The notes under the pieces: model-generated | What the model saw: the letters and a program-made list of their open reading frames with translations, nothing else | Databases searched by the model: none | What the model was told of the DNA's origin: nothing | Part shown: piece by piece, positions 289 through 59,742 of the stretch | How positions within the stretch are numbered: the first letter of the stretch is position 1 | Layout: each line of letters begins with the position of its first letter | Position numbers and translations under genes: made by a program | Origin: Candidatus Babeliales bacterium | Lineage (GTDB): Bacteria > Babelota > Babeliae > Babelales > Vermiphilaceae | Direction: 5' to 3' | Assembly (NCBI GenBank): GCA_020050795.1 | Contig: JAGVKD010000004.1 | Location: 384 to 64,383, forward strand | Length of the DNA: 64,000 nt

Positions 289-696
289 TTAGTGAAAGAG
301 ACGACCGCGAAGATATATCAAGTTGGCATGAGCCTGCGGTGCACGTACCTGATCGTTGTTAAGTTGCAGTTCTCGATCCAAATAATAGCGCTGCGCTGCT
401 GCGTAAACGATTTGAACCGGCTGAGCTGGTAGATTAAGGGGGGCTCCTGGAGCATTGTCTTGAACAAGAGGTGCTGCAATATCGGCTGGATGTGGCTGAG
501 GAACTTCTCTAACAATTCGAACATCAGCCCGATGACGACGTCGAGCCCTGTCTGGACGGGCAATAGCTACCTGTGGCTGCAATAATTCATCGATTCGATT
601 ATCTTCAGGTTCAGGTGCTTGGTTTTCGTCTGCATAATTCATGGCAAGAATAGGCGCTGCGATCAAAAATAGTGCGCATACAAAAATTTTTTTCAT
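289..696 (-). CDS. small leader-bearing (secreted) hypothetical protein, PILAM-leader family
   Basis: Leader MKKIFVCALFLIAAPILA|MNYADENQAP. The leader plus ENQAP region is about 88% identical at nt level to that of the 2470..2694 gene. Pro/Arg-rich mature part. Confidence 0.6.
   Translation of the reverse strand: MKKIFVCALFLIAAPILAMNYADENQAPEPEDNRIDELLQPQVAIARPDRARRRHRADVRIVREVPQPHPADIAAPLVQDNAPGAPLNLPAQPVQIVYAAAQRYYLDRELQLNNDQVRAPQAHANLIYLRGRLFH
612..696 (-). repeat. leader cassette copy 1 (85 nt), paired with 2610..2694
   Basis: Collinear 85-nt match with about 10 mismatches to 2610..2694. The rest of the two genes does not align. Confidence 0.6.
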
Positions 697-741
697 TAAT
701 TATCCTGGTAGAGACTAATGGTTTTTCTTTACGTTACTTGG

Positions 742-1086
742 TTACGCTTCTTCGAATGCCTGGTCAAATTCTTGATTGAATGCCCCATCGAATTCGAATG
801 CGCGGGGTTCTTCTTCTTCAAGTACCAACCCTGCATATTCAGGAAGATCGTCTTCTACTTCAAATAGTATTCCTTGGGCGGGCACGGCGAACTCGTCTGA
901 ATCTGGTTTTATCTTGTTTGAACGAGGCGCAGCAGGGGTATCGTCATGAACCGGATCATTATTGTTAACCCGTTTGAATGGATTGCTTATTCGATCGAAA
1001 ATGTCTCGCTGTTGGTCGTCCATAGCTACCGCACTCATGCATAGAGCAGCAGTTACGAAAGCAAATAATCTGATAAATTTGTTCAT
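742..1086 (-). CDS. small leader-bearing hypothetical protein, acidic C-terminus
   Basis: Leader MNKFIRLFAFVTAALCMSAVA|MDDQQ. ATG (1084-1086) overlaps the tilS stop (ATGA). The ORF-track start at 1137 is an unlikely extension. Confidence 0.55.
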   Translation of the reverse strand: MNKFIRLFAFVTAALCMSAVAMDDQQRDIFDRISNPFKRVNNNDPVHDDTPAAPRSNKIKPDSDEFAVPAQGILFEVEDDLPEYAGLVLEEEEPRAFEFDGAFNQEFDQAFEEA

Positions 1087-2054
1087 TGTTCTCTCTTTAT
1101 AATACGAACACACTGTTTTTTTTTCTCGAGGGACCAAGCGGGATTAATGGTATGGCTTTTGTCCCCAGGCAGCTTGAAGAACCGCATCATTTCGTCCAAT
1201 AATGCATCGCTCGGGGTAAAAGGTACCCCTGCAGAACATAAAAATTGAATCAAAACAGTACGCTGGATTATATCGCTTTCTTCAAGGAATCCATTGATAT
1301 TGAGCCTAATCTTATTTTCTTCGCAAATAGTCAATTTGTCAAACGCTTGGCGGGATAATAGCTCAATGAAATCGTTGGTTTGGGCAAGTCTGTTGAGTGT
1401 TTTGGTAAAGTTCTGGTCAAAGCGGTTATCGATCGCCTGGAATGCGGGTAATACATGATTCCTGATACGATTACGCAAAAAGAGGTCTGAATCGTTGGTT
1501 GGATCCAACCAATAGCTGATCTGGTTGCTTTCGAGATAGGCCAAGATGTCTGATTTATTTGTCTGCAAGAGAGGGCGAATGTAGGGGCCATTTTTGAGTT
1601 TCATACCGGTGAGGCCACTCAAGGATGCGCCACGCAGTAGGCGAATAAAAAAGGTCTCTTGTTGATCCTGGGCATGGTGGGCCAAGGCGATCAGATCAGC
1701 AGTATGTTCTTTTTTGACCTGTTCTAAAAAGTGGCGGCGTAGGGTACGGCCGAGAGCTTCTTTGGAGCCATCTAATTTCACGATGAGGCCAAGTTCTGAG
1801 GCGCGTCGGGCAATGAAAAGGATTCCAAGCTGATCGCACTGTTGCTGGCAAAATTCAACATCTTTGTGTGAATTAACTCGCCACTCATGATCCAAATGAG
1901 CGGCAATGATCTCTAGATTATGAGTTTCGCGCATGCTGGCAAGCAGATGCAGCAAAAACAATGAATCCGGGCCTCCCGAGAGACCAATGATAATGCGCGA
2001 GCCACGAGGGATAAGGGAATGAGTGTCGATAAAAGAGTATAAAGTGTGCAGCAT
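1083..2054 (-). CDS. tilS: tRNA(Ile)-lysidine synthase
   Basis: PP-loop motif IIIGLSGGPDSLFLLHLL, followed by HLDH.WR, about 320 aa, typical TilS architecture. Confidence 0.85.
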   Translation of the reverse strand: MLHTLYSFIDTHSLIPRGSRIIIGLSGGPDSLFLLHLLASMRETHNLEIIAAHLDHEWRVNSHKDVEFCQQQCDQLGILFIARRASELGLIVKLDGSKEALGRTLRRHFLEQVKKEHTADLIALAHHAQDQQETFFIRLLRGASLSGLTGMKLKNGPYIRPLLQTNKSDILAYLESNQISYWLDPTNDSDLFLRNRIRNHVLPAFQAIDNRFDQNFTKTLNRLAQTNDFIELLSRQAFDKLTICEENKIRLNINGFLEESDIIQRTVLIQFLCSAGVPFTPSDALLDEMMRFFKLPGDKSHTINPAWSLEKKKQCVRIIKREQ

Positions 2055-2114
2055 AGGTACTTTTTACCTTACTGCATTTGGGAAAAACGTAAAGAAATTA
2101 TGTAGAAATAAGGG

Positions 2115-57626: not shown

Positions 57627-57718
57627 CGTTTTCCCTTCTGCGTATTTATTTTTGTGATGGTGTACTAGAAAAAATCGTTTCAATAATAAAGGGAGCTCTA
57701 TTTTTTGTCCAGATGAGA

Positions 57719-58381
57719 TTAATGAGAATAGTAAAGTTCGACTTCCCATGCGGGTGGTATGGTACTAGGCGATGGTTCATGTATAGATATCTCTTCTTTT
57801 GTCACTAAAGACGCAAGACCTTCTTTGTTGATATTGGCTTGTATGAACTGTTTATTTTTTTGCTTAAATAATGGCAATCGAGAGGAAGATTTTGTTTGTT
57901 GCACAATAAGAACTTGATTTTGAGATTCAAGAAGAGCGGCCAATGCTGCTGGATGGCTGTGTAATTTTTTATTTTCTTTTGGAACGCAATACACAATGGA
58001 ATAGGGATATACATCTCTCAATTCCTTCACAGATGCATTTTCAATAACATCGAATGTCCACTCTGGTAATTCATCTTCTTCGTTATATGAATCATCAGCT
58101 TCTGGACTGGGTGTCGGCAATGCCTCAATCTCTGCGGAACGCTTCTTGGTCAAAGCCGCGAGTAGTTCGCGTTGTAGCACGTTAGTGAGAAACTTTTCAG
58201 GAGAGGCGCTGATGGTAATAATGCCGGATGATTTTTTAGCATCGACCATGTGCTTAACAATTGTCTGAATGCCGAGTAATTGGTTTTTTTCCAGTGTTGC
58301 CAATGTATCTGCTTCCATTGGCAGTGCGAATGGCATCCATATGCATACCGCGAATAAAAAAATAATGAGGTTATTTTTCAT
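57719..58381 (-). CDS. array B member 3, leader-bearing hypothetical
   Basis: MKNNLIIFLFAVCIWMPFALP|MEAD; SSGIITISASP; NQVLIVQQ. The start overlaps the member 4 stop (ATGAAAAATAA). Confidence 0.6.
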   Translation of the reverse strand: MKNNLIIFLFAVCIWMPFALPMEADTLATLEKNQLLGIQTIVKHMVDAKKSSGIITISASPEKFLTNVLQRELLAALTKKRSAEIEALPTPSPEADDSYNEEDELPEWTFDVIENASVKELRDVYPYSIVYCVPKENKKLHSHPAALAALLESQNQVLIVQQTKSSSRLPLFKQKNKQFIQANINKEGLASLVTKEEISIHEPSPSTIPPAWEVELYYSH

Positions 58382-59054
58382 TATTTTCTTTTTCCTGTTC
58401 ATCATCAATGACCGGATCGGAAATAGACATGGTGATAAATGGAATATCATCACTTGAGTTGAATAATCGTGGCGACTCACTATCGGTAGCATTTTTTGCC
58501 CACAGTTCTTGAACAATGAGCCATTGCATATTGCCTCCCAACACTGCATGAGCGGTGATTAAAGGAAGGTGCTGAGCATCTTGTGGTAGCGCACAGAAAA
58601 GCACTGATTTTTTAGGGGCTCGTTCAAGTGATTTAAGATTTAATTTTTCGAGGTGACCACAACTCCATTTTTGTGGGTGCTCGGAATTTGTTGAATCGGA
58701 AGCTCCGTTCCTTCGACGCTCAAGCTTTTCTCTCTGAATATTTTGTTCTCGATCTTGTGCATCCAATGTTATCAATAGTTCGTGTCGGAGACTTAAAGAG
58801 AAAGGCCGTGAACATAATTTGAAGGATGTGCCCACATCTAAACGGACGACAATAATACCGTAAGAAGGCATAAATCCAAGCCGTTTCTTTAAGCCTTTTA
58901 TAATAGGCTCAAAGCTGCAACCTCCTGTGCGGCACATGCTTTCACAGATAGCGGCAGGAGTTTCAATTGTGTACTGCCCCCGTTCCATGGCAAATAATGA
59001 GGACATCCATGCGCATGCGGCAAATAACAACATAGTGCGTAGGTTATTTTTCAT
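58371..59054 (-). CDS. array B member 4, leader-bearing hypothetical
   Basis: MKNNLRTMLLFAACAWMSSLFA|MERG; GFMPSYGIIVVRL; MQWLIVQE. The start overlaps the member 5 stop (ATGAAAAATAA). Confidence 0.6.
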   Translation of the reverse strand: MKNNLRTMLLFAACAWMSSLFAMERGQYTIETPAAICESMCRTGGCSFEPIIKGLKKRLGFMPSYGIIVVRLDVGTSFKLCSRPFSLSLRHELLITLDAQDREQNIQREKLERRRNGASDSTNSEHPQKWSCGHLEKLNLKSLERAPKKSVLFCALPQDAQHLPLITAHAVLGGNMQWLIVQELWAKNATDSESPRLFNSSDDIPFITMSISDPVIDDEQEKENNEK

Positions 59055-59742
59055 GGAGATCTCTAGGGCCACCAAGATGCACATAGTTATCCTCATGCTT
59101 ACTAATACACATGGTAACAAATGACTTATCTTCAGACGAAGTAAATAATTCTGGTCGAGAAGCGTGTTTTTTTGGTGCCAATTGCTGAACGATAAGCCAT
59201 TGTTTATTCTTCGCGAGCATTGCTTTTGCCACAACTAAGGGAAGGTATTGGGCATCTCGTGGCAGCGCACACAGAAGCACCGATTTCTTAGGAGCTTGTG
59301 CAAGCGACTTGTGATCCAGCGCTTCAATGAAATCATATTCCCATGGTTTAGGATCATGGGCGTCTCGTCTTGCCTCGAAGGGAGTGCTGAGAAATCGTTC
59401 TACTTCCGTTTTACTTTCATAAGCCAATGTATTGAAAAGTTTTTCTTGAATGGCGGATGATAAAGAGACGCGGCTACCACCATTTAGAGGTGCATGTATT
59501 ACGATGAGACCATGATGAGGGAGTGGTGAAAGATTTCCCTGAGAAGTTCCTCTTAAGTCTCGAATGATAGTCGCAGTGAATTCTTCCAAATGCTCTTTTC
59601 TAGATCCGGTTAGAGAAAGCATATCTGCATCCTTAACCATATTTTCATAATCGCGTTCGGGAGTAGAAATCCTCATAGCGAGAGCTGATGGCATTATTGC
59701 GCATGCAGTCAACAGGAAAAAAATGTGTATTTTATTGTTCAT
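59044..59742 (-). CDS. array B member 5, leader-bearing hypothetical
   Basis: MNNKIHIFFLLTACAIMPSALA|MRIS; HHGLIVIHAP; KQWLIVQQ. SVLLCALPRDAQYLPLV is shared with member 4. Confidence 0.6.
   Translation of the reverse strand: MNNKIHIFFLLTACAIMPSALAMRISTPERDYENMVKDADMLSLTGSRKEHLEEFTATIIRDLRGTSQGNLSPLPHHGLIVIHAPLNGGSRVSLSSAIQEKLFNTLAYESKTEVERFLSTPFEARRDAHDPKPWEYDFIEALDHKSLAQAPKKSVLLCALPRDAQYLPLVVAKAMLAKNKQWLIVQQLAPKKHASRPELFTSSEDKSFVTMCISKHEDNYVHLGGPRDLHEK

Follow-up and report, generated by a model that had tools for sequence, protein, structure and literature searches.

The 64,000-nucleotide (nt) window analysed here is a stretch of contig JAGVKD010000004.1 from a Candidatus Babeliales bacterium, and it holds 26 open reading frames (ORFs) in which a methionine stands directly after an N-terminal leader, at the position (+1) that would follow signal-peptide cleavage. 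The gene content is of the type found in obligate intracellular bacteria, with two tandem TLC ATP/ADP translocases, TolQRAB, DsbD and Lnt, and it includes two eukaryote-type PLA2_B phospholipases and one ankyrin-RING protein. The lineage-named relatives of the window DsbD are mostly metagenome-assembled genomes (MAGs) labelled Dependentiae, Babeliales or Babeliaceae (35–53% identity), and many further DsbD relatives in the genome collection are labelled only "uncultured bacterium". The phylum Dependentiae is widespread and consists of obligate protist parasites, almost none of which has been cultured. Signal peptides are reported for 79 of the 126 ankyrin proteins of Babela (PMC4378268) and for 44% of the genes of Chromulinavorax, where orphan ORFs (ORFans) are enriched (PMC6561590), and a type II secretion system is the sole secretion system detected in cultured Dependentiae genomes (PMC4378268, PMC6561590).

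A preliminary description of this stretch had reported Met right behind the small-x-small end of the leader in about 26 ORFs, and we see this arrangement in all 26 of the ORFs re-derived. Each has a leader of 18–22 amino acids (aa) with K or R within the first 2–6 residues, Met at residue 19–23, and the combination of a basic n-region with an uncharged hydrophobic core of 7–15 residues by which Sec-dependent signal peptidase I substrates were recognised. Ala occupies position −1 in 17 ORFs and Cys in 6, with a single G, S and P making up the rest; the residues seen at −3 are A, L, I, S, C, V and T, and at +2, directly after Met, there are 9 E, 8 N, 4 D and a single S, T, G, K and R. The −1 residue is A, C, S or G in 25/26 window cases and in 40/40 cases from other loci, and a −3/−1 matrix scores the site before Met as positive in 25/26. 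These sequence features make the bond just before the Met the most likely cut site of signal peptidase I.

Three other kinds of leader were considered and set aside. The +1 Met ORFs have no Cys at +1 and do not match the lipoprotein lipobox [LVI][ASTVI][GAS]C; where Cys precedes Met, the residue before that Cys is I, V, L or S and none at −3 fits a lipobox. Type IV prepilin leaders are cut before the hydrophobic segment, whereas here Met lies behind that segment and is followed by polar or acidic residues. The RR pair of a twin-arginine translocation signal peptide is found in 0/26 leaders. As a separate observation, Cys at −1 is unusually common in Dependentiae (6/26 in the window and 5/40 among +1 Met ORFs of other loci) and is also present in window proteins that lack the Met, namely the 19350 ORF (SIQC↓E; the arrow marks the predicted cut) and the 23817 ORF (HALC↓T). 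Cys at −1 is rare in E. coli-type cleavage sites.

Some of the 26 ORFs are scattered. A 135-aa ORF at 289–696 (−) (leader MKKIFVCALFLIAAPILA, Met codon 640–642, then NYADENQ) is a paralogue of a 74-aa ORF at 2470–2694 (−) (leader MKKFFGCALLLIATPILA, Met codon 2638–2640, then DDAGENQ). Alongside these lie a 114-aa ORF at 742–1086 (−) (leader ending CMSAVA, Met codon 1021–1023, then DDQQ), a 90-aa ORF at 2115–2387 (−) (GQYCLA, Met codon 2331–2333, then NNET) and a 99-aa ORF at 2765–3064 (−) (IFSLSA, Met codon 3005–3007, then SPKK). Farther along the window are a 116-aa ORF at 14511–14861 (−) (GFGNVQS, Met codon 14793–14795, then NFHN) and a 135-aa ORF at 30253–30660 (+) (VVPLAA, Met codon 30310–30312, then GKKR). 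The 677-aa protein at 9826–11859 (−) (SSSIHG, Met codon 11791–11793, then TERQ), which the preliminary description had counted with the others, is probably a coincidental case.

The other members form two arrays, both on the minus strand. In the 13-gene array A, subfamily I consists of three genes (42165–43004, 43041–43523 and 43671–44408; leader MKK[IL]LSLTLL..PFCAQA; Met codons at 42945, 43464 and 44349), all three with P-L-S-P-R-T downstream. Subfamily II has three genes with the leader M.[FY]KLSILLLCAT[AG]SA.C (44525–44971, 45050–45580 and 45626–46255; Met codons at 44915, 45524 and 46199), a shortened 78-aa copy (46939–47175; Met codon at 47119) and a further full gene (47165–47638; Met codon at 47582) that overlaps the shortened copy by 11 nt. 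Two more genes lie at 46296–46907 (leader MKKILSLTFFLASTLCAQA, Met codon 46848–46850, then ELVV) and 47677–48234 (leader MKTKIFFILLCATFCAQA, Met codon 48178–48180, then EDAN). Subfamily III comprises 48377–49054 (TTSC↓M) with 49097–49744 and 49766–50464 (both TLSA↓M), with Met codons at 48995, 49685 and 50405. Array B has five genes: 56632–57090 (SSFA↓ME) and 57144–57626 (SSLA↓MK) form subfamily I (Met codons at 57022 and 57558), and 57719–58381 (FALP↓ME), 58371–59054 (SLFA↓ME) and 59044–59742 (SALA↓MR) form subfamily II (Met codons at 58316, 58986 and 59674). Neighbours in the latter overlap by 11 nt, the stop of one gene lying inside the leader of the next, and the 78-aa array A copy overlaps its upstream neighbour by the same length; these overlaps suggest tight packing or translational coupling.

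Twelve other leader-bearing proteins of the window lack the Met. They are the S41/PDZ protease, the two PLA2_B phospholipases, the ankyrin-RING protein (16096–16758, LFA↓S), DsbD, the DUF4097 protein, TolB, the only true lipoprotein of the window (30772–31077, LPA↓C, with a lipobox), the 593-aa, 492-aa and 135-aa proteins, and ORF 15052–15756, whose leader may be a membrane anchor. The absence of Met noted earlier in the S41 peptidase, phospholipases, DsbD, TolB, the DUF4097-like protein, the 593-aa protein and the 23817 ORF is borne out by this set. The companion statement that every small leader-bearing ORF has the Met is nearly correct; besides the 23817 ORF, the lipoprotein and the ankyrin-RING protein depart from it.

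To compare the window with its relatives, we used a set consisting of the window, a close sister (metagenome contig Ga0068860_100000221, locus L024, DsbD 85% identical) and 42 further Dependentiae loci. All relatives are DsbD neighbourhoods of about 20 kb, a biased sample of about 0.6 Mb in total. Signal-peptide-like ORFs were called with a home-made heuristic detector, and cluster counts are given alongside raw ORF counts, since paralogy inflates the latter. A site-based tally with the crude −3/−1 matrix found 12 Met in the window, as the matrix favoured early sites inside the hydrophobic core; we therefore used motif and position tests that are independent of any predicted site, asking how often [AGSC]-M-[DENQ] falls at residues 14–36 of signal-peptide-like ORFs relative to the rate of this tripeptide in the remainder of the same proteins. 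The motif is present in 17/37 such ORFs of the window (0.73 expected, P = 7e-18), in 9/14 of the sister locus (0.31 expected) and in 34/187 of the 42 other loci (2.5 expected, 13.6-fold, P = 9e-27). Across sets the enrichment is 13.6- to 29-fold (P 5e-11 to 9e-27), compared with only 0.8- to 2.5-fold when A, L, V, I, S, T, F or Q is placed in the Met slot.

The 34 carrier ORFs of the other loci fall into 25 sequence-unrelated clusters in 17 loci. When the strict-motif genes of the window and the sister locus are stripped of their leaders, BLAST groups them into 15 families, so that the 26 window genes are not 26 independent events. The same pipeline applied to 200 kb of E. coli K-12 finds the motif in 0/33 ORFs, and the residues after its predicted sites are the usual A, D, T, G, Q, K and E. 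Given the excess in the 42 other loci and its absence from the E. coli control, the Met feature is a property of the lineage and not of one genome. It is also confined to one class of protein: clustering the ORFs of all loci revealed no genuine motif case in DsbD (about 45 sequences), the DUF4097-like protein (about 30) or TolB (15), whereas small lineage-restricted families are almost entirely Met-bearing. Our literature search on signal peptides, cleavage sites, secretion and effectors of Dependentiae, TM6 and Babeliales, whose coverage was incomplete, found no Met rule, and to that extent the lineage-wide +1 Met rule is without a published description.

The Met is retained where little else is. 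When the 13 array A genes are aligned, no column is invariant apart from the start Met and the +1 Met, and in array B, whose members are 19–42% identical to the first sequence, the +1 Met is among nine invariant columns. Housekeeping proteins of the window and the sister locus (DnaX, Der, RpsB, TolB, HPF and DsbD) are 85–93% identical, whereas the best matches between their array proteins are only 24–40% identical and no one-to-one orthologues are found. A recognisable leader with the Met is nevertheless retained in 11/11 array genes of the sister locus (3 array-B-like and 8 array-A-like). A profile search with array B in 1.84 billion representative proteins returned nine relatives, and the Met is present in all with a complete N-terminus. 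The residue that follows is constrained as well: it is D or E in 44–53% and D, E, N or Q in 66–81%, compared with 6% and 19%, respectively, at position 2 of 279 leaderless ORFs. As the Met is kept while the surrounding array sequence falls to 24–40% identity, it looks to be under selection in one class of exported proteins. Turnover of the arrays is extreme: besides the lack of one-to-one orthologues, copy number differs between the window and the sister locus (13 and 8 genes in array A, 5 and 3 in array B).

The carrier proteins themselves are poorly represented in databases. Ten representative +1 Met proteins gave no Pfam or NCBIfam match above curated cut-offs, the SVM signal family included; array A member 43671–44408 retrieved itself and two paralogues only from 5.8 billion proteins, and a protein search with a carrier from another clade returned itself and one paralogue only. 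The 677-aa protein retrieved two orthologues (53–57% identity) in two short metagenome contigs. The mature parts of the carriers are hydrophilic, and membrane segments are absent from all but the 677-aa protein. An AlphaFold2 (AF2) model of array B protein 59044–59742 is a compact alpha/beta domain (predicted local distance difference test score 69.6) with no match in the PDB at E < 1e-3. The array A model is all-helical (predicted template modelling score 0.38), with a low-confidence stretch behind the Met, and is too weak for a structure search. Elsewhere in Dependentiae some carriers are coiled-coil proteins or small C-terminally anchored ones, and others, judged by eye and with a simple ankyrin pattern, look like ankyrin-repeat, RING and C2H2 zinc-finger proteins.

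Several features of the arrays stand apart from the Met. P-x-[S/T]-P-R-T is found in 8/13 array A proteins (42165–50464), 10–130 residues past the Met (for example PLSPRT, PFSPRT and PQTPRT), and [S/T]-P-R-T in 7/8 array-A-like proteins of the sister locus (L024 11765–16317); it is nearly the sole conserved feature of the array A mature part. P-x-S/T-P resembles a eukaryotic proline-directed phosphorylation site of the mitogen-activated protein kinase type. A variable island lies between DsbD and hpf/der (window 40376–52278; downstream of DsbD in L002, L024, L025, L030 and L031), and in several Dependentiae it consists of tandem arrays of unrelated small +1 Met genes, with syntenic flanking housekeeping genes. 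In another Dependentiae clade (L030 12127–14909 and L031 11316–16227) the +1 Met arrays encode small proteins in which a cleavable leader is joined with a hydrophobic anchor at the C-terminus and with an acidic tail, a layout reminiscent of tail-anchored proteins.

Some public gene calls for these proteins begin at the +1 Met or within the leader and so hide the signal peptide. The calls P0008, P0011, P0014 and P0015 correspond to window 59044–59742, window 57719–58381 and two genes of the sister locus; two of the four begin exactly at the +1 Met, the other two use a Met within the leader as their start, and the signal peptide is lost from the database proteins. For P0008 and P0015, which start at the +1 Met, the leader is present in the DNA and was missed by annotation.

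Several features of other window genes were also noted. Lon protease (31093–33545, −) is encoded by two ORFs that overlap by 4 nt, an N-domain ORF (32811–33545) and an AAA+/protease ORF (31093–32814); either the gene is truly split or a frameshift interrupts it. Lysyl-tRNA synthetase (21456–23723, +) has an extra N-terminal B3/4 domain (residues 77–193) before its anticodon-binding and catalytic domains. The signal-peptide-bearing PLA2_B paralogues (cytosolic phospholipase A2/lysophospholipase) lie at 19350–21299 and 24273–26222 (+), followed by the 492-aa secreted protein (26241–27719, +), whose N-terminal ~120 residues weakly resemble the phospholipase N-terminus (pairwise E = 0.003). The 593-aa (8032–9813, −) and 677-aa (9826–11859, −) proteins are adjacent large secreted proteins with internal repeats and hydrophobic C-terminal segments.

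We lean, by a small margin over even, towards a class-specific rule that runs through the phylum and places Met at +1 of the signal peptidase I sites of likely effectors, with the consensus [A/L/I/V]-x-[A/C/S/G]↓M-[D/E/N/Q]. Of three possibilities put forward in the preliminary description, A-M-[DEN] as a selected processing or sorting feature is the best fit to the data, the feature being lineage-wide, class-specific and kept while the downstream sequence diverges. Under such a rule, small, hydrophilic, fast-evolving, lineage-restricted proteins would be exported through Sec by ordinary signal peptides and signal peptidase I would cut before the Met, leaving a mature protein that starts with Met-Asp/Glu/Asn/Gln, as the leader sequences suggest. 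Selection would then retain Met, in most cases with Asp, Glu, Asn or Gln behind it, as the mature N-terminus in this class only.

The proteins concerned are probably aimed at the host cell, a character suggested by the ankyrin-, RING- and zinc-finger-like carriers, the hydrophilic mature parts and the published signal-peptide-rich ankyrins and ORFans. The hypothesis we favour for the Met is that it may act after export, on the host side. The half-life of a protein in eukaryotic cytosol depends on its N-terminal residue. Proteins that reach the eukaryotic host would present a Met end that mimics a native cytosolic N-terminus and is safe from degradation: Met is stabilising in the Arg/N-degron pathway, whereas the usual post-cleavage residues Asp, Glu, Gln and Lys would be destabilising in the host cytosol. 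A Met-Asp/Glu/Asn/Gln end would also belong to the NatB acetylation class, as NatB substrates are those that begin with Met-Asp/Glu/Asn/Gln (PMC8553619, PMC4692089). For anthrax lethal factor in the host cytosol, Met was the most stabilising of the N-terminal residues tested (PMC2518864), and listeriolysin O, according to the account of earlier work given there, is degraded through its post-cleavage N-terminus (Schnupf 2007, cited in PMC2518864).

The fuller proposal, that Met-[Asp/Glu/Asn/Gln] is a phylum-wide host-targeting signature, either a NatB-acetylated, N-degron-invisible mimicry or the tag of an undescribed export step, is possible and is offered tentatively, our own expectation being that it falls short. 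If it is true, a two-residue motif would predict the Dependentiae effector repertoire from sequence alone across hundreds of MAGs. The rule also makes it testable whether effectors exported through Sec mimic host N-termini or avoid N-degrons.

A number of observations weigh against selection for a host-directed Met terminus. Acidic residues past the cleavage site are common in exported proteins of Gram-negative bacteria, which weakens the +2 preference. For N-degron safety alone, Ala, Ser, Thr or Gly would serve equally, and NatB normally acts co-translationally, which makes acetylation of an imported protein speculative. The eukaryote-like secreted proteins of the window, the two PLA2_B phospholipases and the ankyrin-RING protein, lack the Met, so it is not required for every presumed host-directed protein. 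The Met has been lost in one orthologue (ATG to CTT), and in the 677-aa protein the +1 residue is Ala in both orthologues, P0005 (THG↓A) and P0006 (TSA↓A). The site before Met is ranked first, or tied first, by the −3/−1 matrix in only 14/26 ORFs, most rival sites falling at residues 13–15 within the hydrophobic core, and the relatives sampled are DsbD neighbourhoods only. Finally, the data fit a tag read on the bacterial side about as well as a host-side role, and nothing separates the two.

Such a tag, in which A↓M-[DENQ] would be read by a dedicated second signal peptidase or by a step of outer-membrane crossing, much as the sorting of lipoproteins depends on residues beside their Cys, is doubtful in our estimate, and is the alternative that survives best. 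It would account for the sharp class split, in which housekeeping exports never carry the Met and accessory ones nearly always do, and for the constraint on both Met and the next residue. The type II system, as the sole reported route across the outer membrane (PMC4378268), leaves room for an unrecognised signal, and the C-terminal membrane anchor of some carriers (L030 and L031) suits proteins that remain in the periplasm or a membrane no less than proteins bound for the host. We know of no defined linear signal for the type II secretion system. No candidate enzyme or machine for reading the tag was seen, however, with no signal peptidase gene in any of the 45 loci (0/45), and PLA2_B and ankyrin-RING proteins are presumably secreted without it.

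The first of the earlier possibilities treated the Met as a relic start codon, leader modules having been joined, by fusion or conversion, to genes whose original start was this ATG, with the Met kept by descent and by conversion tracts that include it. In every family the leaders are better conserved than the mature parts, the carriers are young-looking orphan families, and both of the nucleotide identities originally reported were reproduced as sharp blocks. A 68-nt block shared by the array A pair A12/A13 (49684–49751, −, and 50404–50471) is identical at 67/68 positions; it begins 7 nt before the start ATG and extends 1 nt beyond the +1 Met codon, ending within 2 nt of that codon between poorly matching flanks; synonymous codons of these leaders are identical at 17/18. 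An 85-nt block of the 289/2470 pair (612–696, −, and 2610–2694) is identical at 76/85 positions (89%), with identical synonymous codons at 12/13. The A12/A13 block is likely a recent gene-conversion or copy tract, and the 289/2470 block also looks like a recent conversion or copy event. Conversion tracts would naturally be confined to the sole stretch similar enough to recombine.

Beyond these two pairs, in the other 26 pairs taken as a group, leader conservation holds at the amino-acid level. Positions with the same residue use the same codon at a frequency of 0.61 in leaders, only slightly above 0.48 in mature parts (pairs pooled, A12/A13 left out), which fits purifying selection on the peptide and not copying at the nucleotide level; most leaders are old and conserved as peptides. 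Leader conservation is thus mostly purifying selection on the signal peptide coupled with rapid diversification of the mature part. The scattered singletons compared (742 with 2115, 2765 with 30253) have unrelated leaders and share no cassette. The 289/2470 pair had been described as unalignable in its mature parts, yet their start can be aligned, since the conserved block extends for 10 codons beyond the Met (M[ND].A.ENQAP). The Met persists where mature identity has dropped to 24–40%, the D/E frequency behind it is unlike that at position 2 of leaderless ORFs (44–53% vs 6%), and no leaderless homologue starting at the +1 Met was found among the relatives retrieved, P0008 and P0015 merely missing their leader. 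A copied leader over a relic start therefore describes A12/A13 and 289/2470 locally, and is improbable as an explanation of the feature as a whole.

An alternative internal start, at which the Met would initiate an isoform without a leader, retained in the bacterial cytoplasm, is very improbable. The ATG is strictly conserved, and automatic gene callers sometimes choose it (P0008, P0015). Predicted pairing with the anti-Shine-Dalgarno sequence in the 18 nt upstream is −1.57 kcal/mol for the +1 ATGs, equal to that at 100 control internal ATGs of housekeeping genes (−1.51 kcal/mol) and far from the mean of the primary starts (−4.2 kcal/mol), which do have Shine-Dalgarno-like sequences, in agreement with the earlier observation that no Shine-Dalgarno-like sequence precedes these ATGs and contrary to the internal start that had been listed third. 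The Met always lies directly behind a small −1 residue, which initiation does not need, and the sole replacement observed is CTT and not GTG or TTG. Chance, composition or a by-product of ORF calling, to which the heuristic signal-peptide detector and the inflation of raw counts by paralogy might have contributed, is effectively refuted by the 13.6- to 29-fold enrichment (P 5e-11 to 9e-27), the 25 unrelated carrier clusters in 17 other loci, the lack of any such excess for other residues in the Met slot and the E. coli result of 0/33 through the same pipeline.

The selected +1 Met has partial counterparts in several known systems. Phytoplasma SVM proteins and conotoxin precursors, which are secreted and fast-evolving, likewise combine a conserved leader with a hypervariable mature part in tandem or multicopy genes; to our knowledge neither family is defined by a +1 Met. 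The lipoprotein lipobox (L-x-x-C, signal peptidase II) also defines an export class by an invariant +1 residue, next to which adjoining residues can sort, but the +1 Met proteins have no Cys at +1, Cys occurring only at −1 behind the bulky residues I, V and L. In Plasmodium, processing of leaders with the export element (PEXEL) is reported to expose an x-E/Q/D N-terminus that specifies host export (PMC10653839). There too a class of parasite effectors is set by a processed N-terminus with an acidic or amide residue nearby; PEXEL, however, belongs to a eukaryotic parasite and uses plasmepsin V and the motif RxLxE/Q/D, so that the parallel is one of logic and not of homology. No RxLxE/Q/D motif was noticed in the present proteins, although no search aimed at it was made. 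Lethal factor and listeriolysin O share with the present proteins the principle that stability in the host cytosol depends on which residue signal-peptide cleavage exposes, although they are single proteins that follow no lineage-wide rule, and arrival in the host cytosol is inferred for the Dependentiae proteins.

The closest counterpart is the Q-rule of Bacteroidetes, where signal peptidase I substrates have Gln at +1, which is converted to pyroglutamate by cyclisation (PMC5837995, PMC10653852). In each case one phylum favours a particular residue after the signal peptidase I site, the preference came to light as a statistical excess, and it has a bearing on what becomes of the exported protein or how stable it is. 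A term search of the Q-rule paper found no mention of methionine or TM6. The residue here is Met and not Gln, and whereas the Q-rule covers most signal peptidase I substrates, the Met rule skips the housekeeping proteins DsbD, TolB and DUF4097. The Q-rule N-terminus is modified by glutaminyl cyclase, whereas for the Met rule no modifying enzyme is known and none was searched for. The Met rule would thus be the second case, after the Q-rule, of a phylum that tunes the residue exposed by signal peptidase I, and in this case it does so for one substrate class only.

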